Of a DNA stretch of 64,000 nt, positions 20,113 to 37,075 are shown one piece after another (within the stretch, counting starts at the first letter, position 1; the number at the start of each line of letters is the position of its first letter). The notes under the pieces are model-generated. The model had not been told where the DNA came from. It did no database searches and was given only the letters and a program-made list of their open reading frames with translations. A program made the position numbers and the translations under genes. The DNA is from Candidatus Eiseniibacteriota bacterium (lineage in GTDB: Bacteria > Eisenbacteria > RBG-16-71-46), in assembly GCA_031364845.1 (NCBI GenBank), contig JANLWX010000075.1:7687-71686 (forward strand), given 5' to 3'.

Positions 20113-20766
20113 ATGAAAGACCTACTCAAGAAGACCCTCCCGAGGCCCGTGTTCGATTTCCTCAAAGGGATCTTCTATCGACTCCAGGTGATCCGCATCC
20201 GCACGATGGGCCGTCCCCGGTTCTATGGAGAGACGACCAAAGCGCACGCGCGCCGGCAGTCGGAGGGGTTCTTCGACAAGTACTGCCAGGGGCGCGGGCT
20301 CGACATCGGCTTCGGCGGCGACCCGATCACAGCCACCAGCGAAGGATGGGATTTCGAGGACGGTGACGCGCAGTATCTGAAGGGTCTCGAGAACGAGGCG
20401 TACGACTATGTCTACGCCTCCCATACGATCGAGCACATGGTCGACGCCGATGTCGCTCTGAAGAACTGGTGGCGGGTGACGAAGCCGGGCGGCTATCTGC
20501 TGCTGTATCTGCCGCATCGCGAGTTGTACGAGAAGAAGAAAACACTCCCGTCGCGATTCAACTCGGATCACAAGCACTTCTTCCTGCCCGACCGCGACGA
20601 AGCGCCGGACACGATCGGCGTCGTGCCGCTCATCCACCGCGCGCTGCCGGATGCCGAGATCGTCTACGTGAAGGAGTGTTCGGCCGGCCGCACCATCACG
20701 GATCCGAACATCATGAGCGACGGCGAATTCTCGATCGAGGCCGTGATCCACAAGCCGAAGCGCTGA
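20113..20766 (+). CDS. Class I SAM-dependent methyltransferase
   Basis: GLDIGFG, YDYVYASHTIEH, WWRVTKPGG. Confidence 0.85.
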   Translation: MKDLLKKTLPRPVFDFLKGIFYRLQVIRIRTMGRPRFYGETTKAHARRQSEGFFDKYCQGRGLDIGFGGDPITATSEGWDFEDGDAQYLKGLENEAYDYVYASHTIEHMVDADVALKNWWRVTKPGGYLLLYLPHRELYEKKKTLPSRFNSDHKHFFLPDRDEAPDTIGVVPLIHRALPDAEIVYVKECSAGRTITDPNIMSDGEFSIEAVIHKPKR

Positions 20767-20800
20767 TCGCTTCGCTCTCCCCGCAGCGCGCTCCCGCCGG

Positions 20801-21895
20801 TCAGGAACGCCGCGCGGTTTCGCGGATCACCGCGAGCACCGCCTCGGCGGTCCTGCGATAGGTGAGTTCGGCCGCGCGCGCGCGCGCGATCGGGCGCAGC
20901 CGTTCGCGAATGCTCTCATCGCCGGCCACCCGCAGCGCTTCACGCGACCACGCCACCGCATCGTGTGGATCCACGTAGATCGCGGCCCCGGCGCCGACTT
21001 CGCGGAACGCCGGGATATCGGAGGCGATCACCGGAAGTCCGTGCGAGAGTCCTTCGGCGAGCGGAGAGCCGAAGCCCTCGTAGACGCTCGGGAACAACAG
21101 CATCTCCGCATTCTCATAGAGCCATGCGAGCTCGGCCGGATTCATCCAGCCGAGGTGCGTCACGCGCCGCGCGCCGCGCGCGCGCGCCATGTCGGCGAGC
21201 GAAGGGAACCGCGGCGCGATCGGCCCGGCCGCGACCAGCGGCAGCGGAGGCCGCTCACCCATTGCCGCCCACGCCTCGACCACCACGCCGATGTTCTTGT
21301 GCGGCCGGTTGTCGCCGACCAGCAGCGCGAAGCGATTGTCTTCGAGCGCCTGGGGCCGGCACGGCACGAGGTCCTTTGGCCACGGCGCCACACCGGGCAG
21401 GATCGCGTGCACCTGTTCGGGGCGCGCACCGAGCAGCGTCAGGATCTCGCGCCGGCTGAACTCGCTTACGGTCACGATCGAACGGGCACCGAGCGCCAGC
21501 CGCAGGCTCGCGAGATAGAGCAGGTTCTGGCGCATCGGCCGCAGCCTCAGCGCCGCCACGTCGTGCACCGTCAGGACCTCGGGACAGCCCGACGCGAACG
21601 GGCGCAGGCTGAACGAGCTGAAGTACACATCGGGCCGCGTGCGCCGCAGCCATGCGCCGAGCTGAAACGTGCCGATCGGCTGGATCGGGTGGAATCCGCA
21701 ATCGACCCACTCAGCCCGCGGATGCGCGCGCAGCATTTCGAAGTCGAACCGGCTCTGCCGCCAGGCGGGATTCCACAGCAGCACGTAGCGCTCGTCGCCC
21801 GGCAACTCGAGCAGTTCCCTAAGCAGAGCGAATGCGTAGGTGCCGATTCCCGCGAAGTGGTCGCTCGCGTAGCGCAGATCGTAAGCGACGATCAT
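20801..21895 (-). CDS. Glycosyltransferase, GT4 (family 1) type
   Basis: GIGTY, TVHD, TVSEFS, PHKN, FPSVYEGFGSPLAE, SDIPAFRE. Confidence 0.9.
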   Translation of the reverse strand: MIVAYDLRYASDHFAGIGTYAFALLRELLELPGDERYVLLWNPAWRQSRFDFEMLRAHPRAEWVDCGFHPIQPIGTFQLGAWLRRTRPDVYFSSFSLRPFASGCPEVLTVHDVAALRLRPMRQNLLYLASLRLALGARSIVTVSEFSRREILTLLGARPEQVHAILPGVAPWPKDLVPCRPQALEDNRFALLVGDNRPHKNIGVVVEAWAAMGERPPLPLVAAGPIAPRFPSLADMARARGARRVTHLGWMNPAELAWLYENAEMLLFPSVYEGFGSPLAEGLSHGLPVIASDIPAFREVGAGAAIYVDPHDAVAWSREALRVAGDESIRERLRPIARARAAELTYRRTAEAVLAVIRETARRS

Positions 21896-22102
21896 CGAGT
21901 CCGGCGCCCGGGTAGAAGGGCCGCGAACCGATTCCACTCCACCACCATCGGCGAGGGAGCTGCCACCCAGAGGCCCCACAGTTCCGTGCTAATATGCCGT
22001 CTCCGGGGCGACAGGTCGTTGGATCTTCATGCATCCAGAATGTGTCGAAGCGGGCCGATGATAGCATGACCCCGAGGAGAGTCCGGACATGGTGTCCCCC
22101 GA

Positions 22103-23662
22103 GTGAGCGCATCGAATCTCAGCGCCGACCGTTCGTCGGCGGGCGGCCTCGGCGCCACCATCGCGCGCAACGCGCTGTTCACGGTCATCTCGCGGCTGAC
22201 GTTCTTCTTCGCGTGGGCGCTCGTCACGCCCTACATGCTGGGCGTGCTGGGCGAGGATCGATTCGCGATCTGGACGCTGTTCTTCGCGCTGTCGGGCTAC
22301 TTCCAGATCTTCGATCTCGGCCTGTCGCAGGCGCTGGTCAAATACGTCGCGCAGTTTTCGGCGGCGGGCGACACGCGCGGGCTGCGTGGCGTCGTCACCA
22401 TGGGGACGTTCGCCTACATCGGCCTCGCGACCCCGGTCGTCATCGGGCTCGCGCTGTTCCAGCGGCCGGTTCTCGATGCGATCCACACGCCGCAGGCGCT
22501 GCGCGCCGAAGCCGGCTGGACGTTGATCGGCATCGCGATCGTGATCGGCCTCAACAACCTCAGCGGCGTGATCACCGCGGTGTTGTCCGGCCGCCAGCGC
22601 ATGGACATCACCAGCCGGGTTCTGCTGCTCGTCACGGCGATCCAGGTCGGCGGTGCGATCCTCGCCTTGCGAACCGGCGGGGGGCTCCGCGGCATGGTGG
22701 TCGCCTACGGCCTGGGCGTGCTGATCGGCGCGTTGATCTCGTTCCGGGCGATGCGCACCGTCGAGCCCGAGGCGCGGCTCGACATCTCGTCGATGAGCCG
22801 CAGTCTGTTCGGTGAGCTGTTCCGCTTCGGCAGCGCGCTCCAGATCACGAACCTCGGGACGTTCATCCAGTTCCAGCTCGACAAGTTCCTGCTCGCGCAC
22901 CTCGTGTCGCTCGCGATGGTGACGCGCTACGAACTCGCGAGCCGGCTCGCGCTCGCCGCGTGGGCGCTGCCGACGTTCCTGATCATCCCGCTCGTGCCGG
23001 CCGTGTCGCAACTCGGATCGCTGGCCGATCACGACCGCATCCTGCGCCTGTACACACGCGCCTCGCGCTACATCGCGGCCGTCGCGTTCCCGGTCGCCGG
23101 GTTCATGATCGCGACGGCGTCCGCGCTGATCGTCGCGTGGCTCGGGACCAGTTACTCCGGAGCGGCGATCGGAACCGTCGGCATCATTTCGTTCCTGCTG
23201 CTCACGATGCTCACCGGCGTGGGCACGTCGGTGTGCCGCGGTCTCGGAGCGCCATGGATGGAAGTGCAGTACCACGTGGTCGGCACCCTCATTCATGTCG
23301 GCCTGAGCTTGTGGCTCATCCCGAGGATGGGGATCAACGGCGCGCTGATTGCCCAATTCATCTCGGGCGCCGTCTCGGTGAGCTTCTTCCTGTGGCGTTT
23401 GCACCGCTGGATCCAGGTCCCGTTCGGGCCCTGGCTGCGCGGCGTGATCGTCACGCCACTCGCCGTATCGATCACCGCCGCCGTGCTGGCCATCGTGTGG
23501 CGCGGCGGATTGCTGGCTGCGCCGGCCGGCCGCGTGGCCGCGTGGTTCGACATCGTGCGCGCCATGGCGGTGTTCGCCATCGTGATCGTCGCCGGGTATT
23601 TCGCGACGCGCTTCCTCACGTGGGAAGAAGTGCGCAACCTGGGGCGCTCGACGCGGGCGTGA
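22103..23662 (+). CDS. Oligosaccharide flippase (Wzx/MOP superfamily)
   Basis: Many TM segments; FDLGLSQALVKYVA, LFRFG, QLDKFLL. Confidence 0.85.
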   Translation: MSASNLSADRSSAGGLGATIARNALFTVISRLTFFFAWALVTPYMLGVLGEDRFAIWTLFFALSGYFQIFDLGLSQALVKYVAQFSAAGDTRGLRGVVTMGTFAYIGLATPVVIGLALFQRPVLDAIHTPQALRAEAGWTLIGIAIVIGLNNLSGVITAVLSGRQRMDITSRVLLLVTAIQVGGAILALRTGGGLRGMVVAYGLGVLIGALISFRAMRTVEPEARLDISSMSRSLFGELFRFGSALQITNLGTFIQFQLDKFLLAHLVSLAMVTRYELASRLALAAWALPTFLIIPLVPAVSQLGSLADHDRILRLYTRASRYIAAVAFPVAGFMIATASALIVAWLGTSYSGAAIGTVGIISFLLLTMLTGVGTSVCRGLGAPWMEVQYHVVGTLIHVGLSLWLIPRMGINGALIAQFISGAVSVSFFLWRLHRWIQVPFGPWLRGVIVTPLAVSITAAVLAIVWRGGLLAAPAGRVAAWFDIVRAMAVFAIVIVAGYFATRFLTWEEVRNLGRSTRA

Positions 23663-23796: not shown

Positions 23797-24489
23797 TCAG
23801 AGACGTGCGGCGTAGGACACGATCCAATTGCGGATCATTTCGAAGTCGAGGTAGCTCAGGCCACCCTGAATGAACATGGAGTTCCGCGGCTTGCAGCGCC
23901 GGATCAAGAGGCAGTTGGGGTCGCCGGGAATGAGGTTCGCGGGAGCGGAGCTACCGTTGTCGAGCAGGCCTGCGTACGTGTCGGTGCGGTAGTTGCCGCC
24001 CGCGTTGGCCGCGTCGTGACAACGGGTGCAATGCGTATCCAGGAGATCCCTCAGGTTCGGCTGGTAGTCGAGTCCGGTGCGAAACGCGACCGACCGATTG
24101 CCCGTCGAGAGACCCGAGAGCGATTGCACATCGTGACTCTCCACCACCACGTCGAGGTGATCTTTGGTGTCGTCCCCGAACCATTCCGGTATGACCAACT
24201 GGACGACTCTGCCGTATAGAGTGTCCACCACCGTAGCCGAAGCAATCATGGCGCGGGTCGTCGGGGCCGCGGCGGAGTATACCGCGTAATGCGCAGGGTC
24301 TTCGGCGCTCGCTCGCCCGACGGGTTCGGCGAATTCGATGTCGATCGCATAGAGCGCCGCGGAAGCGGCGCGCAAGGGCGGGTTGGGAGCGACAATCCGC
24401 GCAGCGTGACATCCGGCGAGCGAGATCGCCGTCGCGAATATCGCCATGATCCACCGCGGCACGATGTGGCGCCGGGCCGGGGTGTGCAC
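23797..24489 (-). CDS. Lipoprotein with Ig-like domain and mono-heme cytochrome c domain
   Basis: Lipobox LAGC; CTRCH heme motif; IPGDP..S/C.L..M pattern resembling planctomycete cytochrome c domains; start uncertain. Confidence 0.7.
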   Translation of the reverse strand: MHTPARRHIVPRWIMAIFATAISLAGCHAARIVAPNPPLRAASAALYAIDIEFAEPVGRASAEDPAHYAVYSAAAPTTRAMIASATVVDTLYGRVVQLVIPEWFGDDTKDHLDVVVESHDVQSLSGLSTGNRSVAFRTGLDYQPNLRDLLDTHCTRCHDAANAGGNYRTDTYAGLLDNGSSAPANLIPGDPNCLLIRRCKPRNSMFIQGGLSYLDFEMIRNWIVSYAARL

Positions 24490-24532
24490 GCCGTGGCGAT
24501 ACCCGGTTCGTTGGTGGGCGCACAGCGAGAGT

Positions 24533-25699
24533 CTAGTTCGCATCGGCATCTTCGCTCGCACCGGTCATCCGACGGATCAGGGAGCATTCGAGGCTCACTC
24601 CAACCTGGCCTTGCCGAAAACTGCCCGCGTCCGTCGTCGTGATCGTGGTCGCGGCGAGTCGCGCGGTGTTGTTCGTGAAGCGGCAATACCCGCGAACGGC
24701 GAACCGCGGCCGGGCCCACCGCACACCGGCTTCGACGATGTGACGCGTGTCGTCGCGGTCGAAGTGAAAGCGGTCGGCGGGGCGATCGGAATCGTAGCGG
24801 CGCGTCTCCAGTTCATATGCGGCATCGGCCGTGACCCGCCACGGTTTGCGCCGCAGGAGTTCACAACGCCCACGGGTGCCGATCGACATGCCGTGATAAC
24901 TCACATCGGCGTCGTCGGGGGCGAAGCCGGGCGCTTCGTCGCCGTCTTCGGCCCGAGCGGTGCTCGCGCGGTATGCGCCGTGCGCACCGAGGCTCGCACG
25001 ACGCGGCATGCGATCCCAGCGAACCGCAATGTCGCCTTGATGGAGCTTGGAGTCGCGCTCGTTGAAATCGCCCGCGTAATTCCTGCGCTCGAATTGATAC
25101 TCGGTGGCGATCAACAGCCCTCGCGCGAATCGCTGCTCCCATCCGAGGGAACCGACGTCGAGCGAAAATTCGGCGCGACGATATCTGCTCAGCCCCGGAT
25201 AGCCGGGGGTCACATCTTCGTCGAGCAACTGGCGCAAGTAGTAGCGCGGAATCGTAAGCCAGCTCGCGGTCAGCTGCCGATCGCCACGAAACGATTCGCG
25301 CCAGCTGATTCCGCCGGAGTGCATGTCGGCCGTGCCGTTGCGCTGATGAAAATCCCCGTCGACATGGACGCGCAACGTATGGCGCCGGGCACGCGCCGCG
25401 CGTCGCTCATAAGCGAACCCCAGCGAGGGACCCCACACCAGATCGTCACGCGTTTCAATCGAGTAGCGATCGGGGTGGGCGCCTGCTTCGAAATCACGCA
25501 ACTGCGGATCCGAATACTGAAGGAAATTGCTGTCGTAGAGCGCTCCGAGACTCAGCGTCAGAGTCAGCGATGACTTTGCAGGCGCCGCGGTCCCGGGGCG
25601 TGCGAGCCCCGCGATTCCGAGCAGCGTTGTGATGAGCACCAGCGCGGGGGCGAAGTCGAGCGCGTGAGTCCGGGTCACGAAGCTCGAAGGAACGATCAC
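24533..25699 (-). CDS. Putative outer-membrane beta-barrel protein
   Basis: Signal peptide; YDSN motif; alternating aromatic/polar strands (YQFERRNY, YELETRRY). Confidence 0.65.
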   Translation of the reverse strand: MIVPSSFVTRTHALDFAPALVLITTLLGIAGLARPGTAAPAKSSLTLTLSLGALYDSNFLQYSDPQLRDFEAGAHPDRYSIETRDDLVWGPSLGFAYERRAARARRHTLRVHVDGDFHQRNGTADMHSGGISWRESFRGDRQLTASWLTIPRYYLRQLLDEDVTPGYPGLSRYRRAEFSLDVGSLGWEQRFARGLLIATEYQFERRNYAGDFNERDSKLHQGDIAVRWDRMPRRASLGAHGAYRASTARAEDGDEAPGFAPDDADVSYHGMSIGTRGRCELLRRKPWRVTADAAYELETRRYDSDRPADRFHFDRDDTRHIVEAGVRWARPRFAVRGYCRFTNNTARLAATTITTTDAGSFRQGQVGVSLECSLIRRMTGASEDADAN

Positions 25700-26601
25700 T
25701 CTTCACCACCCACGACCGGCTGCGGGATGCGAGCATGGATCTCGGCAGAACCACCTGCCGGCGCCGCCAGATCAACGGTGATGTCGTGCGTCCCATTCGG
25801 GATTACGACCCGAAAACGGTCGAACTTCGATGGGATGCGATCTTTGAGGTTCGAGTAACTCGCGGTCGAGGCCTTCGAGGTCTTGAACTCGACCTGCTTC
25901 AACAGTTGCGAGCCTTCAGCCAGACGCAGACGGTAGGAGTGGGTGCCGCGCATGGTCGCATCGAAGTCGAGGCGGCTGATGATGTCCAAAGTCGTCGGTC
26001 CCACCACGCGGAATCGCACCGGCTTGCCGGGCCACACGCTGTAGTAGGGAATCGACTTCTCGCCCTCGACCACGAGCACGCTGCGCAGGGCGTCGATGGG
26101 TGTCAGTGAAACCGTCGGTTCATCGCCGCGCGGAGGTGCTCCGCGCTGGAGTCGCAGGTAGATCGCGGCTCCGGTCGTGGCCAGGGTCAGTCGGTGCGCG
26201 CCCGCCGAAACGTCCACCGTCATCCGGCGGCTCTTTCCGATTGCGGCTCGACTTTCGGACAGCGTGACCCGGTCCGAGGCCGATGACTCGGTGGCATTGT
26301 GCTCGATCTCGCGACCGTTCTCGCTCACCGTCAAGACATACGAGGCGACGGCTCCCGGGTGGTCGATCTCGGCGCGCGAAACAATACGCAACCGCACCGG
26401 GCCATCGATGGGAACGACGAGCGGCTTGCCAGGAGCGACTCGAAAGTAAATGCGCTCCTTGCCGTCGACCAACACCGAGGTGGGCGCCTGCCCAGGAATG
26501 GATTCGATGGCGTCCCACTTTCCCGCGTGCGCCGGGGTGACGGCCATGAGAACGGCGATCGCGATGGCACCCATCCAACCAGACCTGTGTCTCGAGTTCA
26601 T
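25696..26601 (-). CDS. Secreted protein with two tandem beta-rich domains
   Basis: Signal peptide (AHA); internal repeat YFRVAPGKPLVVPIDGPVRLRIVSR / YYSVWPGKPVRFRVVGPTTLDIISR. Confidence 0.75.
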   Translation of the reverse strand: MNSRHRSGWMGAIAIAVLMAVTPAHAGKWDAIESIPGQAPTSVLVDGKERIYFRVAPGKPLVVPIDGPVRLRIVSRAEIDHPGAVASYVLTVSENGREIEHNATESSASDRVTLSESRAAIGKSRRMTVDVSAGAHRLTLATTGAAIYLRLQRGAPPRGDEPTVSLTPIDALRSVLVVEGEKSIPYYSVWPGKPVRFRVVGPTTLDIISRLDFDATMRGTHSYRLRLAEGSQLLKQVEFKTSKASTASYSNLKDRIPSKFDRFRVVIPNGTHDITVDLAAPAGGSAEIHARIPQPVVGGEE

Positions 26602-27717
26602 TCAGGAAATCCTTTCGGGGTGGGGTCGGCCCAGCAGTTTGTGTTGAAGGTCGACGCGGAGCACGAAGAAATTGACGGCGAGCACGAGCCCCGCAGCCAG
26701 CCCGACGATCCAAAGATTGTAGCGGTAGCGAATGAACAGCAACCCGCGACCGGGCTGGGGCGTCTCGCCCTTGGCATCGAGGATGTCGAAGGCGCGCGCG
26801 AGCTTCTCGACCTGAAGGAGGTGGACGATCGGCAGGCCGCGGTCGGAGAGGATATTGATCACGCCTCGGTTGGGATAGCTGCGCGCCGCGAGATGCCGGG
26901 TCATGCCCGCCGGGATCAAGCGGGCGTTTTGAGCGCCACCCAGACTCACGACACCGCCGCCGACGTTGACATAGGCCCGCAGCGGCACTCCCCATGCATT
27001 TGCCACCGAATCGTACAGCGCGACGCGCGAGCGCACGGCTTCGAGCACGGTCGGTTCACCCAGCAACCGAACATGGTTGCGTTCGATCGCGTCGGCCAAC
27101 AACTGCCGCCCGGCGGGAGAGAGCCCACGCCCGACGTCGCCGCCGCCTCCGAGTGAGGCTCCGACTGAACGGAAGTCCCACAGCCCGGCGTCCACCACGG
27201 CCGCTTCCATGTCGAGCCAGGTCAGTTCAGGATCAGTCGCGCCGAACATCGAAGCGCCCAGCGATGTCACGAGAATCGGTCGCGCACCGATTGCCCGGCA
27301 TGCCGAGAGCACGGCGAGGTTCATCCCGGGCAGCGAGCCGGTCATCCCGACCGCCACCGCATCTCCAGGTCGCACGCGCGCCTGCAGCAGCATCTGGGTT
27401 ACTGCCGCGGCGAAATTGGGGTGTGCGGCAAACTGCTTTGCCGACTGCGCGCCGCGATCGGTGGTGATGAGCGTGAACTGAGGGCCAATCACGCCGGAGC
27501 CGGTGGGATCGTTGCGCGGATCGATCTCGATGCCGATCCGCTGCTTGGCCGCACGTATGGCGCTTTCGGCACGCTGCATCAGGCGCACGGCGTCGAGTTT
27601 CTTGCGATAGGCTTCGGCGTGGACCGGAGACTGAGAGTGCTCGGCGATCGCATAGAGCACGACCGCCACGCAGGCGAGGCCAACCAGGGCGGGGGTGGAT
27701 GCGCGTGCGAGGCTCAT
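26602..27717 (-). CDS. pgsW: Poly-gamma-glutamate system protein
   Basis: N- and C-terminal TM; DP..SGVIG, PNFAA, GMTGSLPG, SLGASMFGA, SLGGGGD, YVNVGG; follows pgsBC. Confidence 0.8.
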   Translation of the reverse strand: MSLARASTPALVGLACVAVVLYAIAEHSQSPVHAEAYRKKLDAVRLMQRAESAIRAAKQRIGIEIDPRNDPTGSGVIGPQFTLITTDRGAQSAKQFAAHPNFAAAVTQMLLQARVRPGDAVAVGMTGSLPGMNLAVLSACRAIGARPILVTSLGASMFGATDPELTWLDMEAAVVDAGLWDFRSVGASLGGGGDVGRGLSPAGRQLLADAIERNHVRLLGEPTVLEAVRSRVALYDSVANAWGVPLRAYVNVGGGVVSLGGAQNARLIPAGMTRHLAARSYPNRGVINILSDRGLPIVHLLQVEKLARAFDILDAKGETPQPGRGLLFIRYRYNLWIVGLAAGLVLAVNFFVLRVDLQHKLLGRPHPERIS

Positions 27718-28163
27718 CGGATGATCGCCCCGCCGTTGAGGAGCATGAGGAGCAGGCGCACGAGCACGGCCGTCGTCGTCATGACGCACAACGTCTGTAC
27801 GATGCCCTGTCGTTCCATCCAATTGGCGATCAGCCCCGGAATCACATATCCAATCGTACGAAGATCGATCGGAACGCCCGCCTGAGGCAGGAACAGCAGA
27901 TCACGCGAGATGGCACCGAACGAGAATCCCAGCAGCACCGCGATCACGATGCGCCGCCGGCCGTAAACGAGCGCGTAGCGCGACAGCAATTTCAGTGCGC
28001 CCAGGGTGAGCAGTGCCACCGCCACCGTGCCCACGATACGGAGCGGTTCGTGAATCATGAGCGCGAGATAGCCCGGCACGACCATGCCTCCGGCGGCCAG
28101 GCCAAGCGTTTCGGAGAAGATGAGACTGATGACCAGCCCGAGGCCGATCGCCGTTTCAATCAT
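27714..28163 (-). CDS. pgsC: Poly-gamma-glutamate biosynthesis protein PgsC/CapC
   Basis: AGGMVVPGYLAL, YGRRR, IGYVIPGLIAN..RQG. Confidence 0.95.
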   Translation of the reverse strand: MIETAIGLGLVISLIFSETLGLAAGGMVVPGYLALMIHEPLRIVGTVAVALLTLGALKLLSRYALVYGRRRIVIAVLLGFSFGAISRDLLFLPQAGVPIDLRTIGYVIPGLIANWMERQGIVQTLCVMTTTAVLVRLLLMLLNGGAIIR

Positions 28164-29334
28164 GGTGCACCGCCCGATTGCTGAAATGGAGCACGATCGC
28201 TTCCCCCAATCCCACGATGTTTCCGATGCCGACCACCACGCCCCGCTCGGTGATCAGGTCGAGCACGCGCTCGTAGACTTCTTCGGCGCCGAGTCCGCCG
28301 AAGTCGGAGATCTTCGAACGGTCCAGCCCGCGCTGCACGGCTCGGAACGCGACCAACTCGGTGCCGAGACCGGTGAGCACGACATGGTCGGCGTCGAGTT
28401 CGCTGGCGACGAGATCGGCGATTTGTCCGGATCGCTGCAGCCGGTCGTCGCGACAATTGGCAAGAACGATACGGCGCGTGCCTGCGATCGGAGTCGCAAG
28501 ACCCAGTCGCCGCCAAATCAGCAGAGTCGACTCGGGATCGTTTGCCGCGAACGCGTTGACGAACGTGACGTGCTTCTCGCCGGTGACGACCCGATAGCGG
28601 CGCAGTGCTCCCGGATCTGCGGGCGCTTCGTGCATGCCACGCAACGCGGTAGAGCGCTCGACTCCGACGTGCTCACACACCGCCAGCGCGAGCGCGACGT
28701 TCTCCGAATGCTCGACGTAGGAGAAACCGGCGAGATCGTTCGCCGACACGCCACGGTCCTCGATCACACGCATCTCGGACCCACGTGACCGCGCCACCGC
28801 TTCGAGCAGGGGAGCGCGATCGTGCTCGGCGGTGAACAGGATGCCGTTGCGGGGAGCCGTCTGAGCCAGTGTACGCGCGACGTCGTCCACGGTCGGTCCC
28901 ATGACATCGAGGTGGTCGGCACGGACGTTGGTGATGACGCCGACGTGGCTCTGAATCAGCCGCAACTCCGCGAGCGGCTGGAGCTCTGGCGTCACCGCCA
29001 TGCATTCGATGACAACGGCTTCAGCCCGGGCTTCGACCGCCCGCGCGATGATCCGAGTCTGCTCGATGATGTTCGGTCGGCCGACGCGGAAGACGTCGAC
29101 TTCGCGACCATCAGGATAAATCATTCGAGCCATCGTCCCCGTGGTCTTGGCGAAAGTGCGGCGACCGCTGGCGCGCAGGCCACCGGCGATGAGACGTGTC
29201 ACCGAGGACTTGCCGCGTGTCCCGTTGACATGAATCCGCAACGGAATGCGCGCCAGTTGGCGCTGGTGGGCCCGACTTTCCCAGATACCGTAGCCCGCGA
29301 GCCCCGAGATCAGGATCGTTGATACGATTCCGAT
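28156..29334 (-). CDS. pgsB: Poly-gamma-glutamate synthase PgsB/CapB
   Basis: RIHVNGTRGKSSVTRLI, AKTTG, NIIEQ, ECMAV, TNVRADHLDVMG, NAFAANDPEST; probable ATC start 7 nt after GGAGG. Confidence 0.95.
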   Translation of the reverse strand: MGIVSTILISGLAGYGIWESRAHQRQLARIPLRIHVNGTRGKSSVTRLIAGGLRASGRRTFAKTTGTMARMIYPDGREVDVFRVGRPNIIEQTRIIARAVEARAEAVVIECMAVTPELQPLAELRLIQSHVGVITNVRADHLDVMGPTVDDVARTLAQTAPRNGILFTAEHDRAPLLEAVARSRGSEMRVIEDRGVSANDLAGFSYVEHSENVALALAVCEHVGVERSTALRGMHEAPADPGALRRYRVVTGEKHVTFVNAFAANDPESTLLIWRRLGLATPIAGTRRIVLANCRDDRLQRSGQIADLVASELDADHVVLTGLGTELVAFRAVQRGLDRSKISDFGGLGAEEVYERVLDLITERGVVVGIGNIVGLGEAIVLHFSNRAVHHD

Positions 29335-29338
29335 GGCG

Positions 29339-31588
29339 TCACCTCCGCAGGAGAACGGTCCGCTCAGTCCGCACGCCGTCGGAATGGTCAAGCCGCACGA
29401 AGTAGACGCCAGCGGCCACTGCGCGGCCCCGGTCATCGCGACCGTCCCACGTCATCACGCGCGCGCCCTCCGCCATGAAGCGCGACGCAAGCACACGCAC
29501 GCGCGCTCCGGTGAGGTCGAATACCGCGAGCGTCGCCGCCCCGGCGCGCGGCAACGAAAAGCGGAACGTCGTTGTCCCGCCCCGCGCGGGGTTGGGCGCA
29601 ACCGCCAAAGACAGCTTCAGACCAGGCTCTGAGGCCGGCACCGCGGTCGGTGGCCGCCGATACCCGGTGAACGCGGCGACGCCGTTGTCACTGCCTGCAT
29701 AGAGGGTAGCCGTGCCGGCGTCGACCGCGAGCGATCGGATCGTCCGATCGACCAGGCCCAGCTGGCCGCCCACCGAGAACCACGATGCGCCATCATCGAA
29801 ACTCTCGAACACCCCGGCGCCACTAACTCCGCAGAACACGACGCCCGGGTGGTTTTCGTCCCGCGCCAGCGCTCGAACCGGTCGCGCCGTCGGGAGTCCG
29901 GAATTCGACGCAACCCACAACGTGCCGCCATTGGCGGTCCGGTAGACTCCTGAATCGGTGGCAGCGAAGACGACACCCGGTGTTGCATCAGCGAGCAGCG
30001 CGTAGACAAATGGGGCCGGCAGGCCGGCGCTTTTCGAGATCCAGTTGAGGCCTCCGTCCACGGAACGGTATACACCGAACACGTCACTACCCGCGTACAA
30101 CGTCGGTACCGCACCCGGTACGAGTGTGAGGGATCGCGTGCTGAAACTCGCCGGGAGTCCCGATGACCGCGAAATCCACGTGGCGCCTGCGTTGATCGTT
30201 TCGAACACTCCGTTGCCCGTGCCCACGAACAATCTGCCGCTGGTGGACGGTACCGCCACGATGTCGCGCACGAAGCGATTCGTGAGCGTCGACCCGACAT
30301 CGGGATTGGTCCAGGTCGCGCCGTCGTCATCGCTGCGATAGATGCCCGACCCGTAACTGGTGAGAAAAACCCGGGAGGGCAGCAGCGGGTCCACGGCAAT
30401 ACCGTGCTCGGAGTCATGGGGCGTAAGGGCTGTGGCGCGTGTCCAGGACACACCGGTGTCGGTGCTGCGCCAGAACTGGTCGCCGAAACCTGAGCCCTCG
30501 TAGACCGCATGGGTGGAAGGCCGCACGGCGAGCGAGAACGCAAAAGTGCTGAGCATTCCGCCATCGAGCTGAGTCCATGAACCGCCGGCATTGTCGGTGC
30601 GGAACACGCCGCCGCCATCGGTTCCAGCCCATGCAGTGAACGGCGCGACGGGCCGAGCGAACAGGGCGTCGACTCGGTTCTGGGTGAGCCCGGTGTTGAC
30701 AAGATGCCACGTGCTGTCGTTGAGCGAGCTGACATACGCCCCACCATTGTCGGTGCCCGCGTACCGCATCGTATCGACCACGGCGATGCTGCGCATCCGC
30801 AGCGTGGAGAGTCCGCGATTGATGCGCGCCCACGAGAGCCCGCCATCCGTGCTCCTGATCACGCCGCGATCCAACTCCGCCACGTAGATGCGCTGTGGAT
30901 TCTGCCGGTCGAACTGGATCTGCTCCGCGGCACCCTGGTTTGCAGTCGTGTCGGCCACCTGGAGCCAGGTCAATCCGCCCGTCGTACTGCGGTGGATCCC
31001 GCCGCCGGTGCCGGTCGCGGCCAGCAAGGTTTCGGGCTTCTGCGGATGGAATACGATGTCGCGAACATTGATGTTCACGAGCCCGAGATTCACCTGGCTC
31101 CAGTTGCTGCCGCCATTGATCGAACGGTAGATCCCACCGCCGTAGGTCCCGGCCAGCACGTTGCCGGTCTTGATGGGATGGATCGCGATAGCCCGCACCG
31201 AACTCGCGGTGGACAGCAGCCTGTTCCAGTTCACGCCGCCATCCGTGCTCAAGAACACGCCGTCATTCGTGCCGCAATAGACCGAATCAGGATGTTTGGG
31301 TTCAACTGCCAGGCAGCGGACAAAAGTATTGACGAGCCCGGCCCGGTGATCGGTCCAGGTCGCTCCGCCATCGGTGCTCCGATACACGCCGGATCCGAAG
31401 GATGCAGCCCACATGCGAGTTGGGTTCTGCGGATCGGCCGCGATTGCCTCGACGCTCTTGGCTCGTGGCCCATTGCCCGTCCAAATTCCAATTCCCGCGT
31501 GGACCTCGCGGGGTGAGCCCGACATGACCGCGAACAAGGCAACCGATAGTGGAACGAACGCGATCGAGCGGTGCGTCATGACCTTCAT
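29339..31588 (-). CDS. Secreted BNR/Asp-box (VPS10/YCF48-like) beta-propeller protein with FlgD-Ig C-terminal domain
   Basis: More than 10 GVYRSxDGGxxW repeats; signal peptide; C-terminal PNP..VFDLTGARVR..WDGRDDRG..AGVYFVRL; AGGAG RBS. Confidence 0.85.
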   Translation of the reverse strand: MKVMTHRSIAFVPLSVALFAVMSGSPREVHAGIGIWTGNGPRAKSVEAIAADPQNPTRMWAASFGSGVYRSTDGGATWTDHRAGLVNTFVRCLAVEPKHPDSVYCGTNDGVFLSTDGGVNWNRLLSTASSVRAIAIHPIKTGNVLAGTYGGGIYRSINGGSNWSQVNLGLVNINVRDIVFHPQKPETLLAATGTGGGIHRSTTGGLTWLQVADTTANQGAAEQIQFDRQNPQRIYVAELDRGVIRSTDGGLSWARINRGLSTLRMRSIAVVDTMRYAGTDNGGAYVSSLNDSTWHLVNTGLTQNRVDALFARPVAPFTAWAGTDGGGVFRTDNAGGSWTQLDGGMLSTFAFSLAVRPSTHAVYEGSGFGDQFWRSTDTGVSWTRATALTPHDSEHGIAVDPLLPSRVFLTSYGSGIYRSDDDGATWTNPDVGSTLTNRFVRDIVAVPSTSGRLFVGTGNGVFETINAGATWISRSSGLPASFSTRSLTLVPGAVPTLYAGSDVFGVYRSVDGGLNWISKSAGLPAPFVYALLADATPGVVFAATDSGVYRTANGGTLWVASNSGLPTARPVRALARDENHPGVVFCGVSGAGVFESFDDGASWFSVGGQLGLVDRTIRSLAVDAGTATLYAGSDNGVAAFTGYRRPPTAVPASEPGLKLSLAVAPNPARGGTTTFRFSLPRAGAATLAVFDLTGARVRVLASRFMAEGARVMTWDGRDDRGRAVAAGVYFVRLDHSDGVRTERTVLLRR

Positions 31589-31954: not shown

Positions 31955-34900
31955 TCATCGTCCCCACGACTCCACCGGATCCACCTCGCTCGCGAACGCA
32001 GGGTGTTCTCCGGCCGCCACCCGCGGCACCACACGTTCCACGCTCAGCGTGATCGCGCCCAGCGTGTCGTCGACCCGGCCTTCCATGCTCAGCACTTCGC
32101 CGCGCACGGCGTCGGCTAAGCGGCGGTAGGCGTCGGGGAACAGGACGCACTCGGCGATCCCGCTGCGGTCGGCGATCGAGACGAACAGCATCAGTCCGCC
32201 GCTTTTGGTCTCGATCCGCCGATAGGCGCACGGCAGTCCGGTCACGGTGACGCGGCGTCCGACGTGGCGTTCGATCTCCGCGGCCGGTGTCGCGCCGTGG
32301 CGCGCATCGGGGCCGAGCCATACGTCGAGCGGATGCGCGCTGAACCACAGCCCGGTCGCGCAGCATTCGCCGCGCACACGCTCGGCGAGGTCGAACTCGG
32401 GCAGTTCGGCGATCGCGACCGGCGTCACGGGCTCCGGCATGACCGCGGCCCCGCTCAGCGCGAGCAACTCCGGCGCGCGCTCCGCGGCGTGTCGCGCGGT
32501 GCGTCGTGACGAGAGACGCCCCGCGCGCTCGCGCGGCCGCCCGTGTAATCCGCCCGCGAGTGCGGCGGCACCCGGCGTTGCCGCGAGCACGCGCGCTTCG
32601 AGCAGCAGCGCCGGCCGCGTGCGCCCGGCGCGGTCGAGCGCGCCTGCGAGGATCAGCGCTTCGAGTTCGGGCAGCGTCGGCCGCGCGCGCTCGGCGAAGT
32701 CGGCGAGGCTCGTCCATGCGCGCCTTCCGCGCTCCGCGACGATGCGCTCCGCGGTCGAACGCGCGAGTCCGAACACGCGCGACAGCCCGACCCGCACCGT
32801 GCCGGTTTCCCACGCGGCTTCCCACACCGAGCGCCACACGCACGGCGCGCGGAACTCGACGCCTTTGCGGCGCAGGTCCTCGACGTGCACCCAGGTCGCG
32901 TACATGCCGGCGTGATGGTTGAGCACGCCGACCGCCCACTCGGCGGGGAAGTGCGTCTTGAGATACACGCTCTGCCAGCCGAGCGTGCCGTAGCCGGCGG
33001 CGTGCGCCTTGCAAAATGCGTACGCCGCGAAGCGCGTGAGGTCGCGCCACACCGTGCGCGCCGCCTCGACCGTGACGCCGCGCGCGCGGGCGTGCCCGAC
33101 GAATCCGCGCTCGAGCGAGCGGAACTCGTCCTCGGTCTTCGCGCGCCCGATCGCGCGGCGCAGATCGTCGCCTTCGGCGAGCGTCAGCCCGGCGATCGCG
33201 GCCGCGACGTGCAGCACGTCCTCTTCGTAGAGCATCAGCCCGTGCGTCGAGGCGAGCACCGGCGCGAGCGCGGGATGGTGGAATGTCACCGGCTCGAGCC
33301 CGCGCTTGCGGCGGCAGAACGCTTCTTTCAATCCCATTTCGGCGGGCCCGGGACGCACCGCGGCGACCGCGGCGATCGTCTCGTCGAGCGTGTGCGCGTC
33401 GAACATGCGCAGCAGGTGCCGCATCGCGGGCGACTCGAGCTGGAAGCAGTTGAGCGTGTCGCCGGCCGCCATGCGCGCCGAGGTCGCGGGGTCGGGATCG
33501 GGAATGCGATCGACATCGATCTCCACGTCGTGGTGCGTGCGCGCGAGCGATACGCACTCGGCGATCGTGCTCAGCGCGCGATTGCCGAGCAGGTCCATCT
33601 TCACGAGCCCGATCGCCTCGATCGCGCGCATCTCGAATTGCGTGACGACCACGCCCTTGGCCGCGGGTTCGAGCGGCACGTACCAGGTGAGCGGCCGGTC
33701 GGCGATCACGACCCCGCCGCTGTGGACCGACAGATGCCGCGGCGCGCCTTCCAGCTGCTCGGCGAGTACGAGCGCGCGCGACAACGCGGGCTCGCTCCAG
33801 TCGATGAAGCGCGCATCGGGCAGGCGTTCGAGGTGCGCGCGATAAGGCCGCTCGAGCGCATGCGGCACGCGGCGCGCGAGCTGGTTCACGCGCGCGTTCG
33901 GAATGCCGAGCGCCTTCGCCGTCTCGCGGAACGCCGAGCGCGCGCCGAGTGTCGCGTGGGTCGAGATCATCGCGACGCGATCGTGGCCGTAGGTGTCGTA
34001 GACGTGGGCGATCACCTCGTCGCGCCGCTGCCAGCACAGGTCGATGTCGAGATCCGGGCAGTCGGTGCGGCCGGGATTGAGGAAGCGCTCGAACGTGAGC
34101 CCGTAGCGCAGCGGATCCACGTTCGTGATGCCGAGCACGTACGCCACGATCGAGCTGGCGCCGGAGCCGCGGCCCACCGACGGGATCCCGCGCGCGCGGG
34201 CGAACTCGACGATCTCGGCGACCAGCAGGAAGTAGCTCGTGAATCCGAGGCGCTCGATCATCGCGAGTTCGTCATGCAGTCGGGCAAGGGCCGCGCGCGA
34301 ACGCCGGCCGTAGCGCCGCTCGACGCCGGCTTCGCCGAGCCGCGCGAGCCACTGCGGACCGGATTCGCCGTCGGGCACCGGCGCGAGCGGGAAGATCGGC
34401 GTGCCGAGGTCCAGATGGAGCTGCAGCCGCTCGGCGAGCGCGCGGTTCGCGGCGAGCGCGGGGGCCGCCGCTTCCGGCACGCCGGCCGCGGTGCACAGCG
34501 CGCGCACGCGGCGCGCCCACTCGTCGGGCGACGCGAGCCACGCGTCGCGCGCCGCGAACGCGGCGGGCGGCATGCGGTCGAGCAGTTCGCCGTGCGCGGC
34601 GGTGACCGCGGCGCAGTGGGCGTCGTGCTCGGACGGGGCGAGCATCACGACATCGCCGGTCGCGACCAGCGCCACGCCGAGCTGCCGTGCCGCCGCCACG
34701 CGCGCAGCGAGCCGGGTGCGTTCGGAAGCAATGCCGCGCACGCCGAGCGACACGCGCGCGGCGGGCACACCGGCCGCGAGCAGTGCCGCGGCCAGCGCCG
34801 GCTCCTCGACGATGATCTCGAGTCCGTCGCAATGTGCGGCCAGCGTCGCCGCGAGATCGAAGCGCTGGTCGAGATGCCGCGCGCTGATCGCGGCACACAG

Positions 34901-35161
34901 CGTGGCGAAGCCCGCGCGCGTGGCCGCGAGCAATAGCGCCTCGCTGCGCCCATCGCTGAGTGTGGCGCCCAGCAGAGGACGCAGACCGTCGGCCCGCGCG
35001 CGCTGCCAGAAGCGGATCGCAAGGTAAAGGTTGTCGCGATCGGTGAGTGCCAGCGAATCGTGTCCGAGTTCCAGCGCGCGTTCGATTAGCGCTTCGGGCG
35101 ACGCGGTCCCGTACAGCAGCGAACCGTGGGAGCGGACGCGCAGCGGCGTGAAGCCGCTCAT
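31955..35161 (-). CDS. dnaE2: Error-prone DNA polymerase III alpha subunit (DnaE2-type)
   Basis: GRGSGASS, FERFL, PDLDID, HSGG, KMDLLG, FQLESP, YAFCKAHA; degenerate PHP domain; C-terminal OB fold; in an operon with dinB. Confidence 0.88.
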   Translation of the reverse strand: MSGFTPLRVRSHGSLLYGTASPEALIERALELGHDSLALTDRDNLYLAIRFWQRARADGLRPLLGATLSDGRSEALLLAATRAGFATLCAAISARHLDQRFDLAATLAAHCDGLEIIVEEPALAAALLAAGVPAARVSLGVRGIASERTRLAARVAAARQLGVALVATGDVVMLAPSEHDAHCAAVTAAHGELLDRMPPAAFAARDAWLASPDEWARRVRALCTAAGVPEAAAPALAANRALAERLQLHLDLGTPIFPLAPVPDGESGPQWLARLGEAGVERRYGRRSRAALARLHDELAMIERLGFTSYFLLVAEIVEFARARGIPSVGRGSGASSIVAYVLGITNVDPLRYGLTFERFLNPGRTDCPDLDIDLCWQRRDEVIAHVYDTYGHDRVAMISTHATLGARSAFRETAKALGIPNARVNQLARRVPHALERPYRAHLERLPDARFIDWSEPALSRALVLAEQLEGAPRHLSVHSGGVVIADRPLTWYVPLEPAAKGVVVTQFEMRAIEAIGLVKMDLLGNRALSTIAECVSLARTHHDVEIDVDRIPDPDPATSARMAAGDTLNCFQLESPAMRHLLRMFDAHTLDETIAAVAAVRPGPAEMGLKEAFCRRKRGLEPVTFHHPALAPVLASTHGLMLYEEDVLHVAAAIAGLTLAEGDDLRRAIGRAKTEDEFRSLERGFVGHARARGVTVEAARTVWRDLTRFAAYAFCKAHAAGYGTLGWQSVYLKTHFPAEWAVGVLNHHAGMYATWVHVEDLRRKGVEFRAPCVWRSVWEAAWETGTVRVGLSRVFGLARSTAERIVAERGRRAWTSLADFAERARPTLPELEALILAGALDRAGRTRPALLLEARVLAATPGAAALAGGLHGRPRERAGRLSSRRTARHAAERAPELLALSGAAVMPEPVTPVAIAELPEFDLAERVRGECCATGLWFSAHPLDVWLGPDARHGATPAAEIERHVGRRVTVTGLPCAYRRIETKSGGLMLFVSIADRSGIAECVLFPDAYRRLADAVRGEVLSMEGRVDDTLGAITLSVERVVPRVAAGEHPAFASEVDPVESWGR
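31979..32047. repeat. 69-bp imperfect direct repeat (right boundary of the PGA island)
   Basis: 58/69 identity with 23688-23756, including a perfect 17-bp ATCCACCTCGCTCGCGA. Confidence 0.8.
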
Positions 35162-35177
35162 CGCGCGCCCGCGAGGA

Positions 35178-35849
35178 TCAGCCGGGCGGTGCGGGTCCGA
35201 ACTCGGGCATCGTGCGGCCGCCTTCCACGCGCAGGCGCGTGACTGGCAACTCGCCGCGGCGGAAGTGCTCCGCCGTCACGACGCGGCGCAGGATGCGCTC
35301 GCCCCACGCGCGCTCCTCGCCCGACAGCACGCGCGACGTGCTCGTGAAGCGGAAGTTGCACACCGCCAGATCGGCGTCTTCCATCCATGCGAGCACCAGC
35401 CAGTGCGCGTCGTCGTCGCCCGGCAGTCGCAGCCAGAAGCCCGCGATGTCGTAGTCGCCGACGTGCTCGACCCAGCGCTTCACCACGTGCTCGTCGCCGA
35501 AGCCCATCAACTGCTCGATCGCGAACGACGCCGGCGTGCCGATGTTGAAGCGCCCGCGCACGAGTGCGGTGCTCGGTTGCACCGGCATCGGCGGATCGAA
35601 TACCGGCGGCTCGGCGAGCAGGAAGCACAGCGCTTCGGCCCGATGACGCGGAGCGATCTCGGGGACCTGGCGCGAGGAGGCATCGAGCATCACGAACGCC
35701 GCCGTCGCGACCACGCCGAGCACGACTCCGATCACGACCCACGGCGCCAGCACGCGAATCGTCGATGAACGCGCGGGGCGCTTCGCGGCGGGGTGCGCGG
35801 GGCGCCGGAGCGCGCCCGGGGGCGGGGACAGCGAGATGTGCGGGGCCAT
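35178..35849 (-). CDS. Hypothetical single-pass membrane protein inside the dinB-dnaE2 operon
   Basis: ATG 35849; TM VLAPWVVIGVVLGVVATAAFVML followed by a globular, protein-like domain; fills the gap between dinB and dnaE2. Confidence 0.7.
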   Translation of the reverse strand: MAPHISLSPPPGALRRPAHPAAKRPARSSTIRVLAPWVVIGVVLGVVATAAFVMLDASSRQVPEIAPRHRAEALCFLLAEPPVFDPPMPVQPSTALVRGRFNIGTPASFAIEQLMGFGDEHVVKRWVEHVGDYDIAGFWLRLPGDDDAHWLVLAWMEDADLAVCNFRFTSTSRVLSGEERAWGERILRRVVTAEHFRRGELPVTRLRVEGGRTMPEFGPAPPG

Positions 35850-35875
35850 TCCCCGGAGTTTTCGGCATCGTTCGG

Positions 35876-37075
35876 CTACTTCGTGAGCGACGGCGTGCGC
35901 AGCACGAAGCCGTGGCGGTCCTCGTCGAGCTTGCCCTGGAGGTTGAGCGCCCGTCCCGAGACCAGCGCGCCGTGCCCGTACGCGGCGCGCACGCCGTCGA
36001 ACGCGCGGAACAACGCCGCGCGCCGCCCGGCTTCGCGCTCGTCGAACAGCGAGCCCTGGCTCGCGCCCGCGCGCTCGAAGTTCGACAGCGTGACGCCGAG
36101 CGCATGGAGCGCCACGCGGCGCGTGAACTGCCGCGCGAACAGCGCGAGCGCCAGCTCGAGCACGATCGGATCGGTGTCGGACGGGAGCCTGAGCGACCGC
36201 GCCTGCTCGGCGCTCTCGCCGTCGGCATAGCGCAGGCGCACCGCGACCGTGCGCGGCGCCACGCCCAGCTCGCGCGCGGTACGGCACGCTCGGCCCACCA
36301 AATACTCGAGCATGCCGTCCAGCTCCGCGCGATCGGCGGTGTCGCGATGGAACGACGTCTCGCGCGAGATCGTGACCGGGATCTCGCGCTCGGTCACCGG
36401 CATCGTGTCGTGGCCGCGGCAGCGCTCGTACAGCTTCTGCCCGTGCACCCCGAACAGCCGCTCGAGCGCCTCGCACGACAGCGCGCGCAGATCGCCGATC
36501 ACCTTGAGATTCATCGAGCGCAGCGTGCGCGCGTGCGCGTGGCCGACGCCCGCGAGCTGTTCGATCGGGCGCCCGGCGAGGAACGCGTCCGCCTCGTGCG
36601 CCTCGATGCACGCGAGCCCGTCGGGCTTCACGGTCTTGCCGACCAGCTTCGCCAGCATGCGATTGGGCCCGATGCCGCACGTGACCGTGAGCCCGGTCGC
36701 CGCGTGGATTTCGTGCTTCAACGCGCGCGCCGCGGCCGCGAGATCGCCGTGCAGGCGCTCGGTGCCGGTCAGATCGCAGTACGCCTCGTCGAGATAGGTC
36801 TCGACCGCCGGTGCCAGCGCGCGGCAGCTCGCGAAGATCTGCTCGGCGAAGCAGCGATAGATCTGTGCGTGGCCTTCGACGATCACCGCGTCCGGGCAGC
36901 GGCGCTTCGCTTCGCTCAGCGTCATCCCCGCGCGCAGACCGAACGCGCGCGCTTCGTAGGAGCACGAGGCGATCACGCCCGCGCCCACGATCACCGGACG
37001 CCCGCGCAGCCGCGGGTCGCGCTGCTGCTCGATCGAGGCGAAGAACGCGTCGATGTCGACGTGGAGCACGATCAT
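35876..37075 (-). CDS. dinB: DNA polymerase IV (Y family)
   Basis: HVDIDAFFAS, SCSYEARAFG, YLDEAY (catalytic acids intact), KPDG, QGSLF clamp-binding motif. Confidence 0.92.
   Translation of the reverse strand: MIVLHVDIDAFFASIEQQRDPRLRGRPVIVGAGVIASCSYEARAFGLRAGMTLSEAKRRCPDAVIVEGHAQIYRCFAEQIFASCRALAPAVETYLDEAYCDLTGTERLHGDLAAAARALKHEIHAATGLTVTCGIGPNRMLAKLVGKTVKPDGLACIEAHEADAFLAGRPIEQLAGVGHAHARTLRSMNLKVIGDLRALSCEALERLFGVHGQKLYERCRGHDTMPVTEREIPVTISRETSFHRDTADRAELDGMLEYLVGRACRTARELGVAPRTVAVRLRYADGESAEQARSLRLPSDTDPIVLELALALFARQFTRRVALHALGVTLSNFERAGASQGSLFDEREAGRRAALFRAFDGVRAAYGHGALVSGRALNLQGKLDEDRHGFVLRTPSLTK

Follow-up and report, generated by a model that had tools for sequence, protein, structure and literature searches.

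How might poly-gamma-glutamate (PGA) leave a cell that is enclosed by two membranes? The question is raised by a gene cluster in a 64,000-nucleotide stretch of the genome of Candidatus Eiseniibacteriota bacterium (hereafter the window; G000:C227:7687-71686, from an assembly of 4.6 Mb that is 97% complete), in which the PGA synthase genes pgsB and pgsC and a third gene, pgsW, are followed by genes for a secreted tandem beta-sandwich protein and for an outer-membrane beta-barrel, neither of which belongs to a named family. I find that the five genes form a real and conserved module for PGA, and that two of its envelope proteins belong to families not described before. On the evidence of sequences and models, the cluster is probably a PGA operon adapted to a two-membrane cell, the sandwich protein and the barrel carrying the polymer out.

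The literature that was searched yielded nothing on an outer-membrane route for PGA, and in none of it is a PGA gene called PgsW, TIGR04332 or 'poly-gamma-glutamate system protein'. One source credits PgsA with the removal and transport of the chain and, for Gram-negative PGA producers, cites only Fusobacterium nucleatum, via Candela 2009 (PMC4928254); another lists a CapA protein in Leptospira (PMC10100824). The searched literature leaves unexplained how PGA would exit from cells with an outer membrane; for this role the strongest candidates are the sandwich protein and the barrel.

Conservation of the five-gene unit

The conserved unit is pgsB-pgsC-pgsW-sandwich-barrel. Among 41 related genomes, pgsW is present in nine, and strong matches to the sandwich protein are found in exactly these nine, each time adjacent to pgsW (a single extra match, at 2.9e-4, lies elsewhere). 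Strong matches to the barrel occur in eight of the nine. In a reverse test, 32 genome loci were collected with the sandwich protein as seed; all are Eisenbacteria-like (36-65% identity) and they come partly from the same genomes as the survey. pgsW is located directly upstream of the sandwich gene in all 30 loci that could be evaluated, and the barrel gene is located downstream of it in 29 of the 32. Two loci, L031 and L034, have a barrel-like gene (27-29% identity) upstream of pgsB. The open reading frame (ORF) behind the sandwich gene of L010 was considered as a barrel and rejected, as it is not barrel-like. At L047 (3663-4055) the second sandwich domain alone is detectable after pgsW, and there is no barrel within the flank.

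In a forward test, a metagenome scan was seeded with the PgsW alignment and the best 80 of 412 relatives were examined. In the distant group of these loci (PgsW 37-46% identity, GC content 0.33-0.70), pgsW is followed by a sandwich gene in 36 of 37 evaluable loci (all but L124), and a barrel gene follows the sandwich gene wherever this could be evaluated (25/25). The close group has the sandwich gene in 30 of 32 loci, the misses being the apparently chimeric L086 and the fragmentary L093; here the barrel is found downstream in 10 and upstream in two of 17 loci. Three loci (L088, L094 and L119) consist of the five-gene core only. The preliminary description of the window had proposed, as a check, to see whether the accessory families co-occur with pgsBCW, and the repeat protein (the sandwich protein of this text) and the barrel do so in the 41 genomes and in both tests. 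Its other two accessories, a propeller protein and a cytochrome, are optional; 7 of the 20 loci that could be evaluated do not have them.

Natural fusions

Among the 150 best relatives of the sandwich protein, three are full fusions with PgsW (P0187, 672 aa; P0225, 683 aa; P0326, 693 aa; TIGR04332 scores 297-317 bits), and P0306 is a fragment of the same type. The alignment runs from the C-terminal helix of PgsW through a second hydrophobic stretch into the sandwich domains, an order which fits a periplasmic location of both the PgsW domain and the sandwich. The other junction is also found fused: in L121 (9876-11504) and L127 (9810-11555) a protein with its own signal peptide has one sandwich domain (profile positions 1-150, independent E-values 4e-20 and 2e-24) and then the barrel. 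Taken together, the two types of fusion connect the sandwich with PgsW on one side and with the barrel on the other.

Synthase genes

PgsB scores 435.5 bits against TIGR04012 (cut-off 222.7) and also matches Mur_ligase_M; it has a hydrophobic N-terminal helix at residues 34-52, and its true start is possibly a TTG at codon 16 or later. PgsC matches TIGR04011 with 121.4 bits (cut-off 96.45) and PF14102 with 117.2 bits, and five windows exceed the hydropathy threshold, two of them overlapping, which gives four or five hydrophobic segments. From this family membership, the product of the operon is predicted to be gamma-linked polyglutamate.

PgsW, whose gene adjoins those of the synthase, is assigned by TIGR04332 (284.8 bits, cut-off 100); it matches no Pfam family, and a sequence search against solved structures gave nothing significant. 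Its longest ORF starts at a TTG at 27822, with an ATG start at 27717. Hydrophobic helices at residues 3-21 and 335-353 bracket a domain of about 300 aa, which the positive-inside rule would place in the periplasm, and the alignment holds the invariant motifs TTDRG, NPNFAA and TWLDME.

It had been suggested earlier that PgsW replaces PgsA, and that neither PgsA nor CapD is recognisable. For PgsA this agrees with a search of the 97%-complete genome, in which the best match to PgsA/CapA (PF09587) is located on another contig and reaches 20 bits against a cut-off of 27; the control of this search gave a signal in 7 of 14 known genomes. The position of pgsW as third gene and the two-helix topology of its product fit a replacement as well, and PgsW may thus stand in for PgsA. 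For CapD the statement needs an amendment, as the genome does encode one gamma-glutamyltransferase (GGT), the family that includes CapD, on another contig.

The tandem beta-sandwich protein and the barrel

The 301-aa sandwich protein matches no Pfam or NCBIfam family. Its model, made from a 25-sequence alignment, has a mean predicted local distance difference test score (pLDDT) of 88.7 and consists of a signal peptide and, behind it, two all-beta domains. In Foldseek, tandem carbohydrate-binding modules (CBMs) lead the matches (4xup and 2ygm; CBM22, CBM51), and BcsB-BcsC (9b8i) is found at rank 16. Searched with a profile, a set of 1.84 billion cluster representatives contained 894 relatives with E<=1e-3, of which 453 reached E<=1e-10; none of the homologue matches carries a Pfam family, or any name except 'hypothetical protein'. 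Of the distant sandwich proteins, 90 out of 98 are net positive, with a median of +13, which lends weak support to the binding of a polyanion. The Eisenbacteria sandwich proteins share a conserved C-terminal ...VGxEE tail. This EE tail was considered as a polyglutamylation site and rejected, as the tails vary in distant homologues.

The 388-aa barrel protein itself matches no family either, and PF13505 is recorded on 6 of 62 listed homologues. The model has 14 strands behind the signal peptide (pLDDT 85.5, predicted template modelling score 0.80), and its fold matches are porins; the highest template modelling (TM) scores are those of the 14-stranded CymA and OmpG, with PgaA (4y25) at rank 23. 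The barrels of exopolysaccharide secretion have 16-18 strands, against 14 here. The lumen of AlgE is electropositive; such a lumen was sought in this barrel and was not found, the charge as judged by strand alternation being mixed. Weaker paralogues of the barrel are also present in genomes without pgsW (L143, G009:C102, 5606-9157; L144, G002:C30, 7928-13613). A complex prediction with alignments for sandwich residues 27-301 and barrel residues 40-388 scored 0.00 twice, had no controls and is uninformative either way.

Surface accessories

The propeller protein and the cytochrome, a haem c lipoprotein, are an optional, co-varying accessory pair that is specific to Eisenbacteria. The propeller is present in 13 of the 20 reverse-test loci in which both flanks could be evaluated, and the pair is never broken there: 13 loci have both genes, seven have neither and none is discordant. 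The metagenome loci add five with both genes and again none that is discordant. The cytochrome gene is single-copy; it occurs in five of the nine genomes with pgsW, always after the barrel, and, save for one match at 8e-4, in none of the 32 relatives that lack pgsW. In G032:C150 (8847-9361) it was matched in two pieces, perhaps because of a frameshift or a mistake in the assembly.

The propeller protein matches Sortilin-Vps10 (108 bits), FlgD_ig (32.7 bits) and TIGR04183 (27 bits, cut-off 23). A score of 187.8 bits against NF045728, of the F510_1955-type glycoside hydrolases, exceeds the cut-off of 175 as well, but it arises from six repeated blade-like stretches on a profile of 246 positions. 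Towards the GH74 double propellers in the PDB there is a weak sequence likeness (E 1e-15 to 2e-5). The C-terminal domain, at about 29357-29602 of the window (C227:37043-37288), is a sorting domain of type A of the type IX secretion system (T9SS). The genome holds at least 150 such tails and encodes T9SS machinery (PorU, 479 bits; SprA, 564 bits), from which it follows that the propeller is very probably exported to the cell surface. This much of its earlier description as a surface anchor or modifier agrees with the tail and the machinery. Further type A tails are found in the window at about 38929-39171, 50107-50346 and 52777-53016 (-).

The N-terminal part of the cytochrome is Ig-like, and its C-terminal domain contains the CxxCH motif, which is kept in 23 of 23 aligned sequences. 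The protein scores 21.8 bits against PSCyt1, just under the cut-off of 22, and 6 of 77 homologues have a precomputed PF07635 match; a sequence search against solved structures gave nothing significant. The true start of the gene is located between 24561 and 24447.

In the distant lineages, other proteins are found at the cluster: a C25 peptidase of about 1250 aa with the same kind of T9SS tail, a lipoprotein with an LVIVD-repeat propeller immediately after the barrel, and an HGSNAT-like acyltransferase. In the lineage of L121 and L127 the C25 peptidase is located downstream, not upstream.

Comparison with known systems

With the PgsBCA(E)/CapBCADE systems of Bacillus, the cluster shares the families of PgsB and PgsC and the gene order of synthase, membrane subunit and a third membrane-anchored protein. 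However, PgsW, without a Pfam family, takes the third place while no match to PgsA/CapA passes the cut-off in the genome, one GGT gene is located on another contig and no CapD-type GGT within the cluster, and the host has two membranes, with the sandwich and barrel genes as conserved additions. The pgsB-pgsC-pgsW cassette of NCBIfam (TIGR04012, TIGR04011 and TIGR04332), as in Cetobacterium somerae, has the same three genes adjacent and in the same order, but ends after pgsW, and a ggt and a succinylglutamate desuccinylase gene are located upstream. In that replicon (L147, NZ_CP143320.1, 2469-9876) the genes preceding pgsBCW are ggt, DUF6305, a TRAP permease and the desuccinylase gene, and a cold-shock gene is next after pgsW; this accessory set is apparently geared to the turnover of glutamate or PGA. 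The annotated Cetobacterium pgsW measures 960 nt (about 319 aa), and its match to the query is confined to residues 35-170 of the latter.

The alginate (AlgK/AlgE), cellulose (BcsB/BcsC) and poly-N-acetylglucosamine (PgaA) systems likewise rely on a single operon that encodes a synthase at the inner membrane, a partner in the periplasm and a barrel in the outer membrane. There is no sequence relationship to these synthase-dependent polysaccharide systems, however, and the polymer is here predicted to be a polyamide. The tetratricopeptide repeat family, which provides their periplasmic scaffold, was found in none of the seven proteins of the cluster at E<=0.01. Finally, the propeller resembles T9SS type A cargo in its signal peptide, its TIGR04183/FlgD_ig tail and the presence of PorU and SprA in the genome; it differs in having a BNR double propeller as its cargo domain, whereas in other phyla the cargo at the cluster is a C25 peptidase.

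Proposed export and its alternatives

Export across both membranes is the reading that these observations support best. In such a mechanism, PgsB and PgsC, to judge from their families, would polymerise glutamate at the inner membrane, with PgsW filling the place that PgsA/CapA holds in Bacillus. The secreted sandwich protein would take up or guide the polyanion through the periplasm, and the 14-stranded barrel would be its exit across the outer membrane. At the cell surface, the T9SS-exported propeller and the haem c lipoprotein might act on the polymer or retain it; in other phyla the C25 peptidase with its T9SS tail and the LVIVD propeller lipoprotein occupy the equivalent positions. The preliminary description had already cast the repeat protein and the barrel as a conduit, a proposal to which the co-occurrence and the fusions now lend weight and whose conduit function I infer. 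A more far-reaching reading, which I can offer only tentatively, would see PgsBC, PgsW, the sandwich and the barrel as one trans-envelope machine for polyamide secretion that is widespread in uncultured two-membrane phyla, with surface partners delivered by the T9SS that anchor or trim the polymer in roles like those of CapD and PgdS.

Several observations weigh against export as proposed here. In the ninth genome with pgsW (G040), a weak barrel-like gene is located on another contig, and five of the 17 close-group loci have no barrel in their flanks (L059, L066, L071, L072 and L086). Related genomes are non-independent observations, and the 80 metagenome loci were selected by their closeness to the PgsW of Eisenbacteria; clusters of PgsW from Spirochaetota, Bacillota and Aminicenantota fall outside this sample. 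PgsW is placed also in these three phyla by atlas neighbours. The C. somerae replicon (664 kb; Fusobacteriota, two-membrane) has pgsB-pgsC-pgsW and no match to sandwich or barrel, the search being of this replicon and not of the chromosome. By strand alternation the lumen of the barrel holds 20 K/R against 18 D/E, and its conserved positions are nine positive and nine negative. The paralogues of L143 and L144 adjoin a T9SS cargo gene with CarboxypepD_reg repeats and ABC exporters; since pgsW is absent from the genomes that carry them, the association of the barrel superfamily with PGA is not exclusive, which suggests that the wider family serves other export contexts. Finally, the fold matches of the sandwich protein have TM scores of only 0.2-0.3, and its assignment is therefore generic (jelly-roll or CBM-like).

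Some of these observations would also suit a system in which the sandwich and the barrel retain PGA instead of exporting it, the barrel as anchor and the sandwich as tether of an attached capsule, while the polymer takes a different path across the outer membrane. Folds of the CBM type serve as binding modules, the sandwich proteins carry a net basic charge, the lumen is not electropositive, some loci are without an adjacent barrel, and the Fusobacteriota replicon has pgsBCW with neither accessory gene. However, the PgsW-sandwich and sandwich-barrel fusions connect the proteins stepwise between the inner and the outer membrane, which fits passage better than tethering, and the minimal loci (L088, L094 and L119) conserve no alternative exit gene; I consider retention unlikely. 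In Bacillus, PgsB is established as an ATP-dependent ligase of the cytoplasm, a location that bears on the alternative raised in the preliminary description, namely that no free PGA is made and gamma-glutamyl chains are added to a protein, lipid or peptidoglycan substrate in the envelope. The VGxEE tail of the Eisenbacteria sandwich proteins and the T9SS surface enzymes that accompany the cluster in many lineages could be taken in its favour, but PgsB scores far over the cut-off of the PGA synthase equivalog (435.5 against 222.7 bits), the C-terminal EE is lost among the variable tails of distant homologues, and the signal peptide would part the exported sandwich protein from the ligase. Such glutamylation I hold to be very unlikely.

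The propeller and the cytochrome, for their part, might be mere neighbours with a separate function outside the PGA system. They are missing from 7 of the 20 loci, a T9SS cargo gene beside any operon is not rare in a genome with at least 150 of them, and to my knowledge no PGA chemistry requires haem. Against this, the pair flanks the core on both sides and co-varies without exception (13 both, seven neither), the single-copy cytochrome is confined to the genomes with pgsW among the 41 relatives and always follows the barrel, and in the distant lineages, too, the cluster is accompanied by T9SS cargo and by a lipoprotein with a propeller; a separate function of the pair is quite improbable. The locus and its relatives offer two concrete unnamed families which the fusions order from the inner to the outer membrane, and the question of export thereby becomes testable by the expression of five genes. 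PGA genes also prove to be frequent among the uncultured phyla of soils and sediments, which has a bearing on soil polymers, and on the engineered production of PGA in Gram-negative hosts.

Layout of the locus and flanking genes

The preliminary description of seven co-oriented genes that abut or overlap is borne out by the ORFs, the family scans and the junctions, boundaries included (23797-31588, all on the minus strand; Table 1).

Table 1. Genes of the PGA cluster in the order of transcription, with positions in the window.
Feature	Position	Strand	Remarks
BNR/Asp-box double beta-propeller protein with T9SS tail	29339..31588	-	749 aa, signal peptide; optional accessory
pgsB, poly-gamma-glutamate synthase (amide ligase)	28156..29436	-	longest ORF; TIGR04012
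pgsC, polytopic membrane subunit of the synthase	27714..28163	-	TIGR04011, PF14102
pgsW, poly-gamma-glutamate system protein	26602..27717	-	371 aa from ATG at 27717; TIGR04332
Secreted tandem beta-sandwich protein, unnamed family	25696..26601	-	301 aa; candidate periplasmic link
14-stranded outer-membrane beta-barrel	24533..25699	-	388 aa, signal peptide; candidate outer-membrane exit
Haem c lipoprotein	23797..24561	-	lipobox LAGC, CTRCH; optional accessory

pgsB and pgsC overlap by 8 nt and pgsC and pgsW by 4 nt, and the sandwich gene abuts pgsW and overlaps the barrel gene by 4 nt; these overlaps suggest translational coupling within the block. Scans for promoters and terminators returned no more sites than were found in shuffled sequences.

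At its upstream edge the block is separated by a 366-nt gap from the gene of a DnaE-type polymerase on the same strand (31955-35161 (-); PHP, DNA_pol3_alpha, finger, HHH_6 and OB domains), which is in turn preceded by a 356-aa ORF at 35158-36228 (-) that matches no Pfam family. This pair (31955-36228) possibly forms a cassette for an error-prone polymerase. The GC content is 0.72-0.73 in the region of the polymerase, against 0.63-0.66 in the PGA block. At the downstream edge, a convergent flippase-like gene faces the block. It is the Polysacc_synt_3/MatE member of a group on the plus strand (20113-23662) that also includes a methyltransferase gene and an unassigned 368-aa ORF; all three run towards the end of the operon and may belong to a separate surface-polysaccharide locus.

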